Assembly (NCBI GenBank): GCA_041659405.1
Contig: JBAZYK010000009.1
Span: forward strand, 1-32,000
Length of the DNA stretch: 32,000 bases
Source: Candidatus Altimarinota bacterium
Lineage (GTDB): Bacteria; Patescibacteriota; Gracilibacteria; UBA1369
Direction of reading: 5' to 3'
The first letter of the stretch is position 1, and every line of letters starts with the position of its first letter. A program made the position numbers and the translations under genes. Positions 9,417 through 30,317 of the stretch are shown here, one piece after another. The notes beneath the pieces were generated by a model, which was given only the letters and a program-made list of their open reading frames with translations, was not told where the DNA came from and did no database searches.

Positions 9417-9692
9417 ATGTTTAAAGAAGCCCATCTCAAAATTTTTGGCCGGGTCCAAGGCGTTTTCTATCGAGCGGAAGCTCAGGAAAAAGCGCAACAA
9501 CTCGGCCTTAAAGGTTGGGCTAAAAACGCCGCAGACAGCACTGTAGAAGTGCTTATTCAAGGTGCGGAAGCCTCATTACAGGAATTCATTGTTTGGTCCA
9601 AAAAAGGCCCGGAAATGGCCCATGTTACAGAAGTAAAAGTGGATTTCACAACTCTGCCGGCAAAACTGTACGACGAGTTCAGAATTTTTTAA
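9417..9692 (+). CDS. acyP: Acylphosphatase
   Basis: 91 aa. The acylphosphatase signature is IFGRVQGVFYR, followed by GWAKNAADSTVEVLIQG. Confidence 0.85.
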   Translation: MFKEAHLKIFGRVQGVFYRAEAQEKAQQLGLKGWAKNAADSTVEVLIQGAEASLQEFIVWSKKGPEMAHVTEVKVDFTTLPAKLYDEFRIF

Positions 9693-9781
9693 TCCGGCTT
9701 AGGTTTAATCCCATGGTCATACTGCGAAATATTTGTAGTAGGCTATTGTTTTGTATGGTTCAACGCTCACTGGTTTATCTA

Positions 9782-9924
9782 AGTTTTTGTAGGGAATGGC
9801 ATCCTGGCGACATTTGCGAGCGCAGCCGGTCGAGCATCATGATGCGAGACCTTCGCGGAGGCGTACATGTTAGCCGCAGCGAATTGGCGAAGCGTTCGCC
9901 AGGATGCCATTCCCTACAAAAACT
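9782..9924 (+). repeat. Conserved-core / variable-arm hairpin element, copy B
   Basis: Perfect 28-bp stem: 9783-9810 (GTTTTTGTAGGGAATGGCATCCTGGCGA) pairs with 9896-9923, plus A9782-T9924. The core 9811-9895 is homologous to copies A and C. The element lies between the convergent acyP and rplT genes. Confidence 0.85.
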
Positions 9925-9969
9925 CAACGCAAAAACAGGAACAGTTACACATTAACAAAGGTTGTTTAT

Positions 9970-10043: not shown

Positions 10044-10391
10044 TTAAGCTTTTACGATTTCCAGATATTTTGTGAAAACTTCCGGATTGTTTACAGCAAG
10101 TTCAGCCAAAATTTTGCGATCAATCTTGATTTTAGCCTTCAACAAGCCACTCATGAAACGGCTATAGTTCATTCCAGCTTCACGGCAAGCAGCATTGATG
10201 CGAGTAATCCACAAACTGCGGAAATCGCGACGACGAAGTTTGCGACCAACGTAGCTGTTTTGTCCAGCCTTGTGGGTGGCATTCTTTGCCCATTTTACTG
10301 TGCGATTTGCAAGGTTCTTATAACCTTTTGTACCCTTTAGAAGTTTTTTATGTCGGCGATGAGATGCAACGCCACGTTTTATACGAGTCAT
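10044..10391 (-). CDS. rplT: 50S ribosomal protein L20
   Basis: 115 aa. MTRIKRGVASHRRHKKLLKGTKGY...INRKILAELAV is a canonical L20 sequence. Confidence 0.95.
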   Translation of the reverse strand: MTRIKRGVASHRRHKKLLKGTKGYKNLANRTVKWAKNATHKAGQNSYVGRKLRRRDFRSLWITRINAACREAGMNYSRFMSGLLKAKIKIDRKILAELAVNNPEVFTKYLEIVKA

Positions 10392-15868: not shown

Positions 15869-15952
15869 AAAATCTAAAAAATAAATATTTCACTGAGCAC
15901 ATCCGGGGTAGGGGCCCTGTGTGCGAAGGGGAATATTTATTTTTTAGATTTT
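15869..15952. repeat. Long intergenic hairpin (21-bp perfect AT-rich stem, 38-nt GC-rich core) between folE and recR
   Basis: 15869-15889 (AAAATCTAAAAAATAAATATT) is the exact reverse complement of 15932-15952. Inner pairs are T15890-G15931 and C15891-G15930. The core is ACTGAGCACATCCGGGGTAGGGGCCCTGTGTGCGAAGG, with an internal GCACA/TGTGC helix. Confidence 0.8.
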
Positions 15953-18677: not shown

Positions 18678-18761
18678 TGGATTTTAGCTTACATATCCTG
18701 CTCACGATCACCCTGTAGAGAGGGTAGAACTCTATCACTAAAAAGGCGTTGGTCAAGCAAA

Positions 18762-18938
18762 ATCACCAGTTTTTCAAAGTTTCCGGAGGGAATGTTTTTT
18801 TGGCGACATTGCGAGCGCAGCCAGTCGAGCATCATGATGCGAGACTTTCGGAAAGGCGTACATGTTAGCCTTTTCGAACAGGCGAAGCGTTCGCCAAAAA
18901 AACATTCCCTCCGGAAACCCTCATTGAAAACTGGTGAT
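18762..18938 (+). repeat. Conserved-core / variable-arm hairpin element, copy C (longest stem)
   Basis: Perfect 27-bp stem: 18780-18806 (TTTCCGGAGGGAATGTTTTTTTGGCGA) pairs with 18891-18917. Beyond a small internal loop there is a further ~15-bp extension, 18762-18777 with 18924-18938, carrying one bulged T. The core 18807-18890 is homologous to copies A and B. The element fills the carB to 693-aa-gene intergenic region, and its right end touches the carB stop codon. Confidence 0.85.
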
Positions 18939-21900
18939 CATGTATACTCCGCCCACTCTTTAATCTTCAAATCCTCCAGTTTGTATCTCGATAAAGCCTC
19001 AACAATCACACCCGCAACCTGCAAATTGGTCACCAGCGGAATGTTTAAGTCGATGGCTTTACGTCTGATCAAATAGCCATCAGTCACCTCTTCACGACTA
19101 TAATTTTTTGGGATATTGACCACAAGATGAATTTTTCCGCTGCCCAAAAGATCCAACAAATTGGGTTTTTGTTTACCGCTGATTTTGTGTACCAAAGTGT
19201 TGCGAATTTCATTTGCATCCAAAAACGCCGAAGTCCCTTCCGTGGCAAAAAGTTCAAATCCAAGACTCTGCAATTTACGGGCAGACTCCAAAAATTCCGC
19301 TTTATCTTCAATTTTTCCAATGCTCAAAAGTACGCGTTTTTCAGGAATCTTAAATCCAACCGAAATCATTGATTTCAAAAATGCTTCATACATATCATTT
19401 CCAAAACAAGCGACTTCGCCAGTTGAAGCCATTTCTACGCCCAAAACCGGATCGGCACCCTTCAAACGTGAAAAAGAAAATTGCGAAACTTTCACACCAA
19501 CATGATCCAAATCCAAAGTCCTGTAATTTTGTTTACGGAAATAGCTTAAAGATTTTCTGCCAAGCATTGCCTGGGTCGCAATTTCAATAAAATTATAGCC
19601 TGTAACTTTGGATGAAAATGGAAAAGATCGGCTCGCCCGCAGGTTACACTCGATCACCTTAATTTGGTTACTCTTAGCCAAAAATTGGATATTGAAAGGC
19701 CCGGTAATTTTAAGTTCGCGCGCGATTTTTCTGGTAACATCTTTCACTCTGCGAATCGTTTCAATATAAAGTTTTTGCGGAGGAAGCACGATGGACGCAT
19801 CTCCGGAATGCACACCCGCATTTTCAATATGTTCGGCAATCGCATAGATCAAAATATCGCCTTTCAAAGCCACGGCATCGACTTCAATTTCTTTGGCCCC
19901 GGTTTCAAATTTGCTCACCACCACCGGCGCATCAGAAGAAATTCGCGTCGCTTTATTTAAAAACGCCATCAAAGTTTCATCGGTGTGTGCCACGCTCATT
20001 GCCGCACCGGAAAGCACATAAGAAGGTCTTACCAAAACCGGATAACCAACATCTTTCGCAAACTTTTTTACCTGATCAATGCCTGTAAGCTCTTGCCATT
20101 TTGGCTGATCAACTCCCAGTTTATCCAACATTTGTGAAAACTTATGTCGATCTTCGGCACGATCAATATTTTCCGCAGTCGTCCCCATAATTTTAATTTT
20201 TTCCTGCGCAAGTTTAAGCGCCAAATTGTTGGGAACCTGTCCTCCCATCGACACAAAAACGCCTTCAGGATTTTCCTTTTCAATAATATCCATCACTCTT
20301 TCCAAAGACAGTTCATCAAAATACAACTTATCCGACATATCATAATCGGTGGAAACGGTTTCCGGATTATAGTTAATCATGATCGTCTCGTAACCACATT
20401 TTCCGACGGAGGTAAGCGCATTAACGCAGCACCAGTCAAACTCAACCGAAGTTCCAATCGCATAAGGACCAGACCCTAAAACAATCATTTTTTTCTTACC
20501 ACGCGCAGAGCCTTTCTTCTTGCTGAAATCCACATCATCCTCTTCCCCATGATAAGTCAGATAAAGATAATTTGTTTTTGCCGGATATTCCCCCGCCATC
20601 GTATCAATCTGTTTTACCACGGGAATCACACCAAGTTTTTTGCGATAATTGCGAAGATCTTTTTCGGTACGGCCGGTAATTTCGGCTAACTGCTTATCGG
20701 AAAAGCCTTCCTGTTTTACTTTTTTTAAAAGATCCCGCGGCAAATCTTTATGTTTTTTTACTTCCGCTTCCGTCTCCACAATATTTTTTAATTTATCCAA
20801 AAACCACAAATCAATTCCGGAAAGTTTATTGATTTTTTCCGTAGACATTCCTTTTTGCAGAGCTTCCGCAATTGCCACAATGCGGCGAGGAGTTGGATGA
20901 CTTATTTCATTCTCCAAATTTTTGTGTTGGATTCCAAGTTTATCATTTGCCACAAAACCATAAAGCCCAATTTGCAGCATACGCAAGCCTTTTTGCATCA
21001 CTTCTTCAAAGCTTCTGCCAATGGCCATAATTTCTCCAACCGACTTCATTTCGGAAGAAATTTCCTGAGAAACCATGCGGAATTTATCCAAATCCCAGCG
21101 TGGAATTTTCAAAGCAAGATAATCAAGCGCCGGTTCAAAGCAGGCAGTTGTGGTCTTGGTAACGGCATTTTTTAATTCAGGCAAGGTATATCCAAGCGAC
21201 AATTTTGCAGCCACATGAGCCAAAGGATAACCGGTAGCCTTACTCGCAAGGGCCGAACTGCGGCTTAAACGCGCGTTTACTTCAATAATACGATAGTCTT
21301 CAGATTTTGGATCAAGCGCGTATTGAATATTACATTCACCCACAATTTTCAAATGTCTGATTACCTTAATCGCAATTTCACGCAAACGGTGATATTCATG
21401 ATTGGTTAAAGTCTGGGAAGGCGCAATTACAATACTTTCGCCGGTATGAATTCCAAGCGGATCAAAATTTTCCATATTACAAACCGTAATGCAGTTATCG
21501 GCCGCATCACGCACCACTTCATATTCAACTTCCTTCCAACCTTTCAGGTTTTCTTCAACCAAAACCTGTGGGGAATAAGCAAAAGCAGTTTCCAAAAGTT
21601 CATCCAATTCTTTTTCACTGTAAGCAAATCCGGACCCCTTTCCTCCAAGTGCAAAAGCCGCCCGAATAATTACGGGATAGCCAATTTTTTCAGCTGCGCG
21701 CATACCTTCCGCTTTGTTTTTACAGGCCAGACTATTTGGCACCTTCATGCCAATTGAAACCATTTCTTTATTGAAAACTTCACGATCTTCCGTCTTTTGA
21801 ATCGCTTCAACCTGGGTTCCTAAAACGCGAACATTGTGTTTCTTTAAAATATTTTTTTCATGAAGTTCAACTCCACAATTAAGCGCTGTTTGCCCACCAA

Positions 21901-26594: not shown

Positions 26595-26742
26595 GATTTT
26601 TTACTCCTATTTTTTTGTGCAGACAACCTCGAGGCCGAGCGGGCATGGCTGCCGCAGGCAGAGCGAGGCCGAGAGCTTAGCGCGGCTCGACTCGCAGGGG
26701 CGAGCAAGCGGGTCTGCACGGAAAAATAGGAGTAAAAAAATC
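26595..26742 (+). repeat. Long intergenic hairpin (~30-bp AT-rich stem, 87-nt GC-rich core) between the GT4 gene and the DciA-like gene
   Basis: 26595-26624 (GATTTTTTACTCCTATTTTTTTGTGCAGAC) pairs with 26712-26742 (GTCTGCACGGAAAAATAGGAGTAAAAAAATC). The stem has one bulged A and two T-G pairs (26616/26720 and 26615/26721). Those are wobbles only in a plus-strand RNA. The core contains GAGGCCGAG twice and a CTGCC-GCA-GGCAG hairpin. The right arm ends in the GT4 stop codon. Confidence 0.8.
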
Positions 26743-27862
26743 AGTCCTGTTTATAAATTTTCAAAGTTTCCTGAGCCATTTTATCCCACGAGAAAAATTT
26801 CACCCGTTCAAGTCCACGGCGAATCAGCTCCTCACGCAGCGACTTTCGACTAATCACCTCAAAGATTTTTTCAGCCATATTTCGCACATTCATTGGATTA
26901 AAAAAGATCGCGTTTCCTTCTCCACAAATTTCCGGAATGCAGGAAGTATTAGAAGCCGCAACCGGAATTCCGCAGGCCATAGCCTCCAAAGGCGGCAACC
27001 CAAAACCCTCATACAATGAAGGAAAAACATACATTAGCGCGCCATTATACAATGGTATCAAATCCTCATCGGCAACCAATCCCGTAAAAATCACATCAGG
27101 TTCAAGCTGCAACGACATGGCTTTATCCACAATTTCAGGCGCGTACAAAGGATCTTGCCTGCCAGTTATCACCAAATATCCATCAAAACCATATTCATTT
27201 TTCAAAATATAAAAAGCCTCCAACAAATTCGTTAAATTTTTATGACTCCGCCAAACTCCGGTATACAGTAAATACGGCTTATCCAAATGATATTTCGCTT
27301 TTATCTTTTGTGTTTGAGCCGCGCTTTCTTCCACGCGTTTAAAATTTGATCCAACTCCTTCATAAATCACGGCGATTTTTTCTGCAGGAACTTTGAACAG
27401 TTTTTGCAGATCTTTGCTGGTATTTCGTGAAACCGCAATCACTTTTTCTGCCTTCTTCACCGCATGCCCAAGCGTTAATTGATAAGCAATTCTGTAAGCC
27501 GGAGAATTCATTTTTTTGCCCGGGTAAAAAGACAAAGTCAGATCATGAATTGTCACCACAAATGGCCGTCGATACAAAATTGGCGCATTAAAATGGGTAA
27601 AATGCATCATATCCAACTTTTCACGGTTCAGTATCCGCAAAAATTTCCATTGTTCCGCCATAGAATAATGTCGGGCATTCACCAAAACCTTTTTCACCCG
27701 CGGACTTTTTGGCTGAAACTTCTCAAATTCCGGTTCATTGAAAAACAAAACATACTCATTTTCCCGGTCGATTTCAAACAACCGGTCGGTTAATTCATGA
27801 ACATAGCGTCCAATCCCCGTAAAAGCCGATGAATACATCCGACAATCGATGCCAATTTTCAT
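26741..27862 (-). CDS. Glycosyltransferase family 4 (GT-B fold)
   Basis: 373 aa. Features: GIGRYVHEL near the N-terminus, and C-terminal YNGALMYVFPSLYEGFGLPPLEAMACGIPVAASNTSCIPE (the EX7E-type GT4 signature). Confidence 0.8.
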   Translation of the reverse strand: MKIGIDCRMYSSAFTGIGRYVHELTDRLFEIDRENEYVLFFNEPEFEKFQPKSPRVKKVLVNARHYSMAEQWKFLRILNREKLDMMHFTHFNAPILYRRPFVVTIHDLTLSFYPGKKMNSPAYRIAYQLTLGHAVKKAEKVIAVSRNTSKDLQKLFKVPAEKIAVIYEGVGSNFKRVEESAAQTQKIKAKYHLDKPYLLYTGVWRSHKNLTNLLEAFYILKNEYGFDGYLVITGRQDPLYAPEIVDKAMSLQLEPDVIFTGLVADEDLIPLYNGALMYVFPSLYEGFGLPPLEAMACGIPVAASNTSCIPEICGEGNAIFFNPMNVRNMAEKIFEVISRKSLREELIRRGLERVKFFSWDKMAQETLKIYKQD

Positions 27863-27870
27863 ATATGAGT

Positions 27871-28128
27871 TTATTTGTAAACGTCTTTTCTATGGCCAAC
27901 ATCATGTATTGTAATCAGATTTTGCTCTTTAATAAACAAAATTCTGTAATCGCCTACTCTTAAACGATATCCTTCTTTTGGAGCTCTCAATTTTTTAATG
28001 TTTAACGAATGGAATAATACAGGATCTGTTAATTTTTCAAGAGCGATTTGCGCGCGGTCCCTTAAAGATTTTCCCATCTTTAAAAATTGTTTCGAGGCCG
28101 ATCTTGTAAATTCCAATTTATAATTCAT
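27871..28128 (-). CDS. relE: RelE/ParE-family type II toxin
   Basis: 85 aa. The pattern YRLRVGDYRILF...ITIHDVGHRKDVYK is the classic RelE/StbE C-terminal pattern. There is a 4-nt ATGA overlap with the upstream antitoxin. Confidence 0.8.
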   Translation of the reverse strand: MNYKLEFTRSASKQFLKMGKSLRDRAQIALEKLTDPVLFHSLNIKKLRAPKEGYRLRVGDYRILFIKEQNLITIHDVGHRKDVYK

Positions 28129-28388
28129 CGGGTTTTCTTTTTTAAAGATTCCCAGGCAATATTTTTTTTACCTTTATTTTTAATGACAGATTTAACGAGT
28201 TTTTCGCTATCCACCTTGTCTTCATAAGCCTGCACTAAGCTATTATAGGTATCCAGATCAATCAAAACCGCCTGGATATTATCATTGGAAACAACCACGG
28301 GGTTGCCTTCAATAACCTGCTTAAAATAACTTGCCAATTTTTGGCGAAATTCAGTTATGCCTACATTTTTTTGGATTTTAACGTACAT
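28125..28388 (-). CDS. Phd/YefM-family antitoxin
   Basis: From ATG 28388: MYVKIQKNVGITEFRQKLASYFKQVIEGNPVVVSNDNIQAVLIDLDTYNSLVQAYE. This is the Phd/YefM N-terminal fold pattern. The tracked ORF extends to 28616, but that extension is low-complexity and hydrophobic and looks like non-coding sequence. Confidence 0.7.
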   Translation of the reverse strand: MYVKIQKNVGITEFRQKLASYFKQVIEGNPVVVSNDNIQAVLIDLDTYNSLVQAYEDKVDSEKLVKSVIKNKGKKNIAWESLKKKTR

Positions 28389-28515
28389 ATAAATGTTAGT
28401 TATAATGTAAATTTTAACGTACATTATAATAATATCTTGTAATGAAAAATTAGCAAGTCCAAGCATAGCAGAAGGATCATTAAAATAATCTAAAAAACTT
28501 ATTAAAAATGAACAC

Positions 28516-28544
28516 TTGCAAAAAAAGCCTCTCTTCATTATCAT
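28516..28544 (+). promoter_or_regulatory. Possible promoter for tRNA-Asp (TTGCAA-N17-TATCAT)
   Basis: -35 TTGCAA at 28516-28521 and -10 TATCAT at 28539-28544 with a 17-nt spacer, about 90 nt upstream of the tRNA. Confidence 0.3.
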
Positions 28545-28633
28545 TGGCAGGCAAATTTCGTGGATATATTCCAAAAAATGGTTCAATAAAGGCGCCCAAG
28601 GCTTATTTAAAGCCAAAAGGCAGGCGGAGACGT

Positions 28634-28710
28634 GGAGCGGTAGTTCAGCTGGTTAGAACGCCACACTGTCACTGTGGAGGTCGCGGGTTCGAGTCCCGTC
28701 CGTTCCGCCA
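28634..28710 (+). tRNA. tRNA-Asp (anticodon GUC), CCA encoded
   Basis: GGAGCGGTAGTTCAGCTGGTTAGAACGCCACACTGTCACTGTGGAGGTCGCGGGTTCGAGTCCCGTCCGTTCCGCCA. The 7-bp acceptor stem is GGAGCGG/CCGTTCC. The D arm is GTTC/GAAC. The anticodon stem is CCACA/TGTGG with loop CTGTCAC. The T arm has a TTCGAGT loop. It is nearly identical to canonical bacterial tRNA-Asp. Confidence 0.95.
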
Positions 28711-28713
28711 TGC

Positions 28714-29589
28714 CTAACTTTCTCCAAGCGCCTCCACAAAAATTTCTCCAATCTTTTTGATTTTTGCCGGATCCGGTTCAGTGTTAACCATGCTTAATGT
28801 TTTATCGCTCACGGAACCTTTGCACAAAAAACGTTTTGGGAAATCCATAACCAAAACTCTCCCCGGTCGGGCAATCATATAATCCGTGGTTTTGTGGATA
28901 TTTCTCTCGGCGGCATAAGGCTCATTTTCAGCCCACGGAATGCAATTTTTTTCAAAAAGAGTTCCAAAAATATCTCTCATTTTTAAATCAGCAAGATCCT
29001 CTTCGTCTTTTGGTCCCGTAATTATGTCCACCTTCGTTTCCGGCCCAACGCCAACGCCATTTTCGCGGGATAAAATATAGGCCTGAAGCTCTTTTTTACT
29101 AAATCCGGCTTTTACATCCGGTAACAGATTAGTATGCATACTATGTAGGCACAACATTTTTGCCGTCTCCGGAAGCACCGCCAACAATTGCTCAATTGAT
29201 TCAATAATCGATTCATGAATATCCAGCAAAATCTTTTTTGCATCTTCGGATATGTCCGGATTTATCACGGTGCCAAGCGCAAATTCGGGCCTGCGATTTA
29301 AATCCAAAATACCCCGGGCCACCTCAATACTTACCGCTATGCCCCCGGGAACATGGTTGATAATGTAATCAGTCAATGCCTTAGGCCCTTTATCACGTTT
29401 GATCTCCAAAACCTGTTTAAGCAGATCAACTTCTTTCGGAAAAAATTTCTTTACTTCATCCGGAAAAGCCAACCTGGAACTGTCATGCGGAACAAGCAAA
29501 AAATATCGCGGAGATGCGGAAGAAAGCGAATGCTGAACGCTAATCCAGCCCTTAGTTTCAGCCCGAGTTTTCGGAAGATTTATGCTCAT
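28714..29589 (-). CDS. N-formylglutamate amidohydrolase (FGase) family hydrolase
   Basis: 291 aa. Motifs in the order expected for PF05013-type proteins: LLVPHDSSRLAFP (N-terminal His), ARGILDLNR (the ...D.NR motif), LCLHSMH (the HS motif) and ENEPYA (the N.PY motif). Substrate is unknown. Confidence 0.5.
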   Translation of the reverse strand: MSINLPKTRAETKGWISVQHSLSSASPRYFLLVPHDSSRLAFPDEVKKFFPKEVDLLKQVLEIKRDKGPKALTDYIINHVPGGIAVSIEVARGILDLNRRPEFALGTVINPDISEDAKKILLDIHESIIESIEQLLAVLPETAKMLCLHSMHTNLLPDVKAGFSKKELQAYILSRENGVGVGPETKVDIITGPKDEEDLADLKMRDIFGTLFEKNCIPWAENEPYAAERNIHKTTDYMIARPGRVLVMDFPKRFLCKGSVSDKTLSMVNTEPDPAKIKKIGEIFVEALGES

Positions 29590-29651
29590 GATTTAATACT
29601 AACATTTCAAATCATGGCTGAACAAGAAAATTCATAAATAATTTAAGATTA

Positions 29652-29680
29652 TTGTACTAACATTGTTAGTGCATTATAAT
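29652..29680 (+). promoter_or_regulatory. Promoter with embedded palindromic operator for the DinJ-like/toxin operon
   Basis: -35 TTGTAC at 29652-29657 and -10 TATAAT at 29675-29680 with a 17-nt spacer. The spacer holds the inverted repeat ACTAACA-T-TGTTAGT (29656-29670). An extra half-site ACTAACAT lies at 29598-29605. Confidence 0.4.
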
Positions 29681-29709
29681 ATTGGCGGATATAATTTAAC
29701 TTCATCAAT

Positions 29710-29937
29710 ATGACCACATTAACCGTTCGCATAAAAGAAGATTTGAAAAATAAAGCCTTTAGTCATGCGGAAAAACTGGGGGTCCCGCTTACCTTGGTTG
29801 TCATCAATGCTCTGGAAAAATTTGTAAAATCACCACGGATTGTAATCGGAGAACCTGAAGCAATTGAGGTTACTCCCGCAATCCAGAAAAAAATGGATAA
29901 AATTAGCAAGTTACTCTCTAAAACCAAAAAAAAGTGA
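29710..29937 (+). CDS. RelB/DinJ-like (ribbon-helix-helix type) antitoxin
   Basis: 75 aa. LTVRIKEDLKNKAFSHAEKLGVPLTLVVINALEKFV follows the DinJ/RelB N-terminal pattern (beta strand, then two helices). There is a 4-nt GTGA overlap with the downstream ORF. Confidence 0.55.
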   Translation: MTTLTVRIKEDLKNKAFSHAEKLGVPLTLVVINALEKFVKSPRIVIGEPEAIEVTPAIQKKMDKISKLLSKTKKK

Positions 29938-30317
29938 AACTTATTATTACAAATGCGATTGATAAAGCTGAATTCGAGCCTTTGAAGAAGACTTTTAATC
30001 TGGAAATCATTAAAAATGCGGCAAGAAAATCGCTGCAAGGGCTAGGAAATGACATTAAAAGTTCTTTCAAAATTCCCGCCACTTCATTAAATAAAATTTA
30101 TTTAACTGGCCCTGGTAGCGCAGGAAGGGCCATGTTCTTGTTGAAGATTGGGGAGGCGAAGTCCGTTTTGGTAATGATTCGAACAAAAAAGGACAAACAA
30201 ATTGGTTTAAACATGACGATTAAAAATCCGAAATTTAAAAAAGCTCTCAATAAAAATTTAGGATTGATTATTGCTGACCTTGAACAAGGCAATTATCGTG
30301 AGTATGAGATTGTCTAA
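29934..30317 (+). CDS. Putative toxin partner, distantly RelE/HigB-superfamily-like
   Basis: 127 aa, GTG start overlapping the antitoxin stop. GPGSAGRAMFLLKIGEAKSVLVMIRTKKDKQIGLNMTIKNPKFKKALNKNL loosely follows the G.GG.R...... ...L...K.....N......LK pattern of DUF1044/Gp49-type RelE-fold toxins. The call is by resemblance only. Confidence 0.35.
   Translation: MKLIITNAIDKAEFEPLKKTFNLEIIKNAARKSLQGLGNDIKSSFKIPATSLNKIYLTGPGSAGRAMFLLKIGEAKSVLVMIRTKKDKQIGLNMTIKNPKFKKALNKNLGLIIADLEQGNYREYEIV

Follow-up and report, generated by a model that had tools for sequence, protein, structure and literature searches.

A hairpin repeat of Peregrinibacteria and Peribacteria with a conserved core at the tip of a stem of variable, mutually matched arms

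REPINs are doublets of REP sequences that fold into hairpins and are mobilized by RAYT transposases, with conserved ends and a variable spacer. MITEs carry conserved terminal inverted repeats that match those of a parent insertion sequence and have direct target duplications. The attC sites of integrons have R''/R' end motifs (RYYYAAC ... GTTRRRY), extrahelical bases and a variable center, and stand in cassette arrays beside intI, and the double-hairpin elements of fungal mitochondria are GC-rich mobile modules of two adjacent hairpins in an AT-rich genome. To our knowledge, the mobile elements of the Candidate Phyla Radiation have been little studied, and we know template switching as a process described for short hairpins and reporter genes, not as the maintenance of a repeat family with arms of 27-47 bp around an 85-nt core.

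In REPIN hairpins, compensated changes on the two sides are common (PMC3116915). Bacterial MITE-like palindromic repeats have been reviewed (PMC2229807); they lie within transcription units or at their edges, and some reach coding ends. Quasipalindromes mutate by template switching (PMC7202029), a process that is also able to generate hairpins and keep them intact (bioRxiv 10.1101/2021.04.15.439925, also PMC8794818). According to this work, copying between arms yields perfect complementarity in one step, multi-nucleotide "compensated" changes and extension of the stem (PMC7202029; bioRxiv 10.1101/2021.04.15.439925). Here we describe a family of hairpins that we class as of the palindromic-repeat kind, set apart from REPINs and MITEs, and that appears to be undescribed so far; a search of the literature on palindromic repeats or MITEs in Peregrinibacteria/Patescibacteria returned nothing relevant.

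The window, by which we mean the whole 32,000-nucleotide stretch of a Candidatus Altimarinota bacterium contig (JBAZYK010000009.1) that was analyzed, holds three copies of the element (A, B and C), all on the + strand as had been claimed in the original prediction. An inverted-repeat search returned perfect arms of 27, 29 and 28 nt at 100% complementarity, which bears out the three mismatch-free stems with diverged arms and the arm sequences that had been quoted for them. The arms enclose 84-85 nt in each copy, a GC-rich core of ~85 nt, and the whole element measures ~185 bases. The features to which we refer are as follows.

333 to 516, + strand: copy A, full element; perfect arms 355-381 with 466-492 (27 nt)
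9782 to 9810 with 9896 to 9924, + strand: copy B, perfect arms (29 nt); hairpin span 9782-9924
18761 to 18937, + strand: copy C, full element; perfect arms 18779-18806 with 18891-18918 (28 nt)
9761 to 9781, + strand: left outer segment of copy B (P0), homologous in A and C, poorly paired in B
9782 to 9810, + strand: left perfect arm of copy B (P1, 5' strand), AGTTTTTGTAGGGAATGGCATCCTGGCGA
9811 to 9895, + strand: core of copy B (P2, P3, P4)
9896 to 9924, + strand: right perfect arm of copy B (P1, 3' strand)
9925 to 9947, + strand: right outer segment of copy B (P0), CTCAACGCAAAAAC...
9417 to 9692, + strand: acylphosphatase gene acyP (PF00708), upstream of copy B, stop at 9692
10044 to 10391, - strand: rplT gene for L20 (PF00453), convergent with acyP
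10009 to 9980: rplT's own terminator, from a terminator scan

A 22-mer of the core (GTCGAGCATCATGATGCGAGAC) occurs three times in the window against zero expected, and the fold z-scores of the three copies were -9.5, -10.5 and -12.2. Homology among A, B and C extends ~20 nt past the perfect arms on both sides, into an outer helix that is paired in copy A except for two C-A mismatches, matches at 16 of 17 positions in copy C, where it adjoins the carB stop codon at 18938-18940, and is largely unpaired in copy B. The claim that every arm substitution is compensated thus holds for the inner 27-29 bp and fails in the outer helix of copy B. Copy A lies 60 nt upstream of the RNase Y gene (552-2162) and copy C is flanked by two - strand genes, to both of which it is antisense, while copy B stands between the convergent acyP and rplT genes, the latter with its own terminator, just as had been predicted. 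No core-less "empty" arms were found in the window, and an open reading frame across the element is not meaningful, three of the six frames being open in all copies. An intrinsic terminator was rejected as well: the scan found only the terminator of rplT itself, no U-tract follows the stem, and copy B is not trailed by a T-run on either strand. Around the three window copies, scans found no promoter-like site associated with the element, either in it or beside it.

The sequence GGCGAAGCGTTCGCC (window 9886-9901; 457-471 in A and 18882-18896 in C) forms a 6-bp hairpin by itself, so that TCGCC, with which the right arm begins, can pair either locally or with GGCGA of the left arm, a hint that the base of P1 can fold in more than one way. 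In the relatives, the P5 hairpin (GCGCGAAUGCGC) stands at the position of this local one. The window also matches an ENA metagenome contig (ERZ27249449, k141_182038), and Logan contigs of the same organism break within the cores of A and B, the ends of one of them (L004) corresponding to window 425 and 9843, exactly inside the two cores. Such breaks are typical of a repeat, as expected, and because the repeat breaks short-read assemblies, metagenome-assembled genomes (MAGs) may under-report the family.

Other hairpins were seen in the window. A fourth element, D (26597-26739), has the architecture of A, B and C, its AT-rich arms measuring 28 nt and its GC-rich core 87 nt. The arms have two mismatches, each of them a U-G on the + strand, the core bears no sequence relation to the cores of A, B and C, and D ends 2 nt before the stop of a glycosyltransferase gene (26741-27862, - strand). 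No second copy of D was present among the loci examined. A further hairpin at 15869-15952, between the recR start and the folE stop, has 33-nt arms that are 88% complementary and an 18-nt GC-rich tip; one arm contains GGGGAATATTTATTT, which is similar to the copy A arm, and the hairpin could be a related or decayed copy or a terminator. A ParE toxin/PhdYeFM antitoxin pair (27871-28616, - strand) adjoins a tRNA gene (28634-28707), and 28714-30317 contains several open reading frames without a Pfam match.

The family as assembled here comprises 13 copies, namely the three in the window, two on metagenome contigs and eight in four Peregrinibacteria/Peribacteria MAGs; metagenome contigs and the window aside, we found the element only in Peregrinibacteria and Peribacteria. 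A search with a pattern on the two loops (CATCATGATG-N13-17-GGCGTACATG) gave 19 matches, eight of which are true copies (L020, L024-L027, L030, L031 and L033), while the other 11 fall by chance within coding regions of unrelated phyla. An exact 20-mer of the core was found in no GTDB genome, no viral contig and one metagenome contig (L003), and six-frame peptides of the core, a search aimed at spurious ORFs called on other copies, gave a single weak match among 5.8 billion proteins, leading to the metagenome copy L014. No Rfam 15 family passed its gathering threshold on the element in the window or in 10 related loci, where only tRNA and SSU rRNA passed, and a permissive E-value search gave no family either; the best sub-threshold scores were 12.7 bits against 51.2 for EFASI and 19.2 bits against 36 for SAM_alpha. 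Plasmid and phage collections likewise gave no real match to the element.

Four syntenic relatives (L007, L010, L011 and L012; 79-91% L20 identity) have no element at the sites of A, B and C and no similar inverted repeat in 20 kb, so A, B and C are lineage-specific gains; at the copy B site, the intergenic DNA of the relatives is too diverged for an empty-site footprint to be aligned. Some of the closer L20 relatives are labeled Candidatus Peregrinibacteria or Gracilibacteria by their sources. Across the family, copies occupy tiny gaps at the 3' ends of genes, mostly directly after stop codons, with five of the 13 between convergent genes, and these contexts support the earlier statement that the element is not simply the 5' leader of one gene class. 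In 12 of 13 contexts, the core is in sense orientation relative to one neighboring transcription unit or more. GC skew on the core-sense strand, examined for core orientation relative to replication, was negative at nine copies and positive at four, which is not significant. No transposase, recombinase or other mobilizing gene was found near the copies.

In the predicted fold of copy B, P2 pairs 9820-9827 with 9886-9895, P3 is a hairpin (9828-9851) with a CAUG loop and a tandem GA/GA internal loop, and P4 is a hairpin (9852-9883) with a 10-nt loop, GUACAUGUUA. Twelve of the 13 copies share this fold, in which a copy-specific, AT- and purine-rich stem of 27-47 bp encloses P3 (..GAGCAUCAUGAUGC..), P4 with the same loop, and a third part that is a short P2 or P5 helix. 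The exception, L014 (10010-10213, - strand), has a 27-nt inverted repeat that precedes the core, encloses a terminator-like hairpin and includes in its left arm the stop codon of a class II ribonucleotide reductase gene; an inverted copy of the tail of that gene lies 5' of the core, and no matching 3' arm follows it.

P3 and P4 covary, scoring 0.25-0.29 in the 13-sequence alignment against 0.07-0.10 in shuffles, none of 500 of which reached the observed score, and against 0.03-0.13 in slid-register controls. Four pairs of P3 use two to four pair types apiece, and its tandem GA/AG alternates with G-C plus A-U. P4 retains non-Watson-Crick internal loops (GAA/GA, GA/GA) that have not been "corrected" to a perfect palindrome, and the + strand of the window copies folds 6-10 kcal/mol better than the - strand. 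The invariance of the two loops is partly an ascertainment effect, as the pattern that yielded eight of the 13 copies prescribes both loops, and it is independently backed by L003 and L014 only. The conserved loops hold palindromic hexamers, UCAUGA in P3 (window 9837-9842) and ACAUGU in P4 (9865-9870), and a 4-bp CAUG/CAUG loop-loop contact from P3 to P4 is possible; since both loops are invariant, covariation provides no test of it.

When the left arms are anchored at GGCGA, copies A and B differ at 7 of 26 positions and copies A and C at 8 of 26, and every one of these differences is mirrored in the partner arm, so that this right-anchored comparison reproduces the original counts. Three of the seven A/B differences are transversions, and not one of the 84 pairs in the window arms is G-U. 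Divergence among the window copies is 12-15% in the core, where it is concentrated in the inner stem of P4, and 21-31% in the arms, a ratio of ~2x instead of the threefold difference claimed before. The arms of A, B and C can be aligned at 69-79% identity with their GTTT, GGGAAT and GGCGA blocks in register; because these blocks are shared and homology continues into the outer helix, the three go back to a single ancestral arm and diverged later. Between genomes, arms are unalignable. On the core-sense strand, the arms of the relatives contain 12 G-U pairs and no A-C mismatches (two-sided binomial p about 0.0005). Neutral processes acting on DNA should give the two kinds equally, and this bias is one of the signs that the folded single strand matters.

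The most informative comparison is that of two orthologous loci, in Peribacteria Ike-200m-53 (L030) and Peregrinibacteria CG_4_10_14_0.2 (L031), which are collinear over 1840 nt at 82% identity. At both, the element lies between convergent genes for an S41 peptidase and a VirB4-like ATPase, and the core is kept at both and reverse-complemented between them. P3 differs by a 2-nt block, GA/GA versus UC. At empty sites in two other genomes, the peptidase and ATPase genes run into each other over 4 nt, a TTAA that holds both stop codons (L035 5020-5023; L036 4427-4430) and that represents an extreme case of genome compaction. By comparison with these, the element was inserted precisely between two overlapping stop codons. 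No direct repeat was seen flanking A, B, C or L030; the TTAA shared by the empty sites may have been duplicated and then mutated.

The right arm at L030 and L031 consists of the last codons and stop of the VirB4-like gene, which align codon for codon with the empty site, and the left arm is an inverted copy of this tail located just after the S41 stop. Most of the VirB4 homologues among the C-termini listed end in ...EELLKQREQA* or a close variant, and the tails at the filled sites are QREAK* (L030) and KQKDEQ* (L031). The arms of the two loci differ at 7 of 24 positions, and the partner arm mirrors all of these differences in L030 and most of them in L031. The coding arm and the non-coding one opposite it thus changed together while the core flipped. 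At L027 (4153-4310), convergent genes encoding a ClpP-like protein (...VKRK*) and an ATP-grasp/RimK-like protein (...SKRK*) both end at a mirrored TAA inside the arms, and the palindrome therefore supplies one tail and stop to both. The evidence for inversion and for host-derived arms comes from one orthologous pair plus two empty sites, and an inversion between perfect flanking repeats might in principle reflect misassembly, or polymorphism within a population, instead of a fixed difference. In the window, the arms of A, B and C are mutually homologous, and no host-derived part was identified in them.

Taken together, these results lead us to lean, by a modest degree, toward a multi-copy hairpin repeat that is gained and lost, whose arms are homogenized by DNA copying and whose core-sense strand is selected for folding as a single strand. 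In each copy, a conserved GC-rich core caps a long AT-rich stem that is free to change in sequence. Under this explanation, the two arms of the DNA palindrome would be copied repeatedly from each other, and this would be the main reason that the stem stays perfect. Likely routes are template switching during replication (quasipalindrome correction) and recombination between the arms, by gene conversion, reciprocal exchange or inversion. A change in one arm would be either erased or written into both; arm sequence would thereby drift at approximately the neutral rate, with full pairing regained in one step each time. Arm copying would also invert the core and appears to have extended the stem into neighboring host sequence. 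The route of arm homogenization is inferred, as is the mobility of the element, the latter from presence and absence only.

Judged on sequence, the perfect arms are best explained by arm-to-arm copying at the DNA level, which would account for the lack of G-U among 84 window pairs despite transversions, for the 2-nt block change in P3 between L030 and L031, and for arms that drift faster than the constrained core. We favor this origin because the core is inverted between orthologues, a coding arm changes in concert with its mirror, the window arms have no G-U pairs, and P3 changed as a block. The arms had originally been presented as direct compensatory covariation, with arm-to-arm gene conversion in a DNA palindrome as the alternative; the compensated change is real, and it is the alternative that the inverted core and the concerted coding arm favor. 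Selection on the folding of the core-sense single strand would act on top of arm copying. A purely neutral process at the DNA level predicts neither the strong wobble bias nor a core conserved between orthologous loci. Together with P3/P4 covariation, the greater stability of one strand and the internal loops kept in P4, these two features indicate, as far as comparative data go, that the core-sense strand is under selection to fold as a single strand, and we think that the folded form is more likely a transcript than single-stranded DNA.

The strongest competitor, which we regard as possible and on balance doubtful, is a functional structured RNA that acts either in cis, from a 3'-UTR or an intergenic position, or as a small RNA, in which the long P1 helix is held by purifying selection on the transcript and the arm differences are true stepwise compensatory substitutions. 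In its favor are the covariation of P3 and P4, loops conserved in copies found independently of them, 12 G-U against no A-C in core-sense arms, a + strand more stable than the - strand, a core retained at orthologous loci and, in 12 of 13 contexts, the sense orientation of the core relative to one adjacent transcription unit or more. It does not, however, sit well with a core whose orientation flips between orthologues, with a protein-coding arm that still changes in concert with its mirror, or with stems that have accumulated transversions and no G-U among 84 window pairs; nor is there an Rfam match, a U-tract after the stem, or a + strand promoter or terminator flanking copy C, which is antisense to both neighbors.

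A more speculative and rather unlikely possibility is that the double-hairpin core is a new mobile module which lands in minimal intergenic gaps, those at overlapping stop codons included, copies adjacent host sequence inverted into its stem, and afterwards flips and homogenizes it. The stem would then be an inverted rather than a direct target duplication, and the folded RNA or single-stranded DNA would be recognized, through its two invariant CAUG loops, by a putative protein of Peregrinibacteria.

We consider it improbable that the element is a conventional non-autonomous transposon (MITE or REPIN) moved by a transposase encoded elsewhere, for example an HUH/Y1 enzyme acting on the folded strand, with arms kept paired because only hairpin-forming copies transpose. 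The multiple copies, the presence and absence among relatives, the precise insertion between two overlapping stop codons and the homology that joins A, B and C along the entire ~185-nt unit, with its outer helix, would all fit a transposon, as would the compensatory hairpin changes known in REPINs (PMC3116915). The arrangement of conservation is nevertheless the reverse of that in MITEs and REPINs, with the termini most variable and the center most conserved, and there is no evident direct target duplication and no REP with a GTAG or CGTC tag. The ~80 kb of sequence read around the copies showed no transposase, and no Y1_Tnp gene was present in ~42 kb of the source genome and the 8-kb loci of other genomes. 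In addition, arms within the same genome differ by 21-31%, which means that no recent burst has taken place.

It is very improbable that the element is a programmed invertible switch (inverton), in which the arms serve as recombinase sites and flipping of the core alters expression of a neighbor. A core inverted between orthologous loci and bounded by perfect inverted repeats, of a length within the size range of inverton repeats, would suit such a switch, yet the arm sequences are not conserved and thus cannot be specific recombinase sites, the inversion is seen only between species, no promoter-like site lies in or beside the core, and no invertase gene was found among the neighboring genes. 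Finally, recent inverted duplication of local flanks without independent substitutions, which would agree with the part of the arm that is a native gene 3' end in L030/L031, L027 and L014, is barely credible for the window arms, and the suggestion that they are identical flank copies is contradicted for A, B and C by independently diverged arms that align at 69-79% identity with shared blocks in register and by homology that continues into the outer helix.

These observations have consequences beyond the family itself. As arm-to-arm copying of DNA gives the same pattern, a perfect stem is by itself no proof of a selected RNA helix, and "compensated" stems in repeated palindromes alone should not be taken as evidence for one; the L030/L031 pair is one of the clearer natural illustrations known to us of DNA copying that mimics covariation. 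Within the Candidate Phyla Radiation, the family is a candidate for a new motif, of structured RNA or of single-stranded DNA, or else for a new mobile element. Furthermore, insertion into a zero-length gap between overlapping convergent genes rewrites the tails of those genes, and this rewriting shows how very compact genomes can tolerate such repeats.

Among described systems, REPINs resemble the element in being multi-copy, extragenic, hairpin-forming, ~100-200 nt long and persistent in a lineage, and in forming a hairpin unit with compensated changes across its two sides. They differ in that here the center is conserved, the arms are variable and an arm can be partly host gene sequence. The conserved 20-40-nt end palindromes with a GTAG/CGTC tag that mark REPs are lacking, the ends being the most variable part and the foot untagged, and no RAYT was seen in the stretches read from the source genome (~42 kb) or from the other genomes (8 kb per locus). 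MITE-like repeats such as Correia/NEMIS, ERIC, RUP and the Rickettsia palindromic elements are likewise small, non-coding and palindromic and form long hairpins, whereas the present element has no conserved terminal inverted repeats and no clear direct target duplication; its arms, 21-31% different in the window and unalignable between genomes, are not the terminal repeats conserved among copies by which MITEs are known. Invertons share inverted repeats around a short segment found in both orientations, as in L030 versus L031, and differ in having a promoter, an adjacent invertase and a conserved repeat sequence, none of which was seen for the present element.

The fungal mitochondrial double-hairpin elements, with which the likeness is by description only, occur in a different host and have no long enclosing stem. 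Integron attC sites combine conserved structure with variable sequence in a hairpin and act as a folded single strand; attC identity was rejected, as the ends here (GTTT...AAAC) are in the reverse order, the neighbors are housekeeping genes, and there is no array and no intI. Quasipalindrome template switching, finally, is a mechanism and not a family, and the accounts of it on which we draw describe single-event copying between arms of the kind proposed here.
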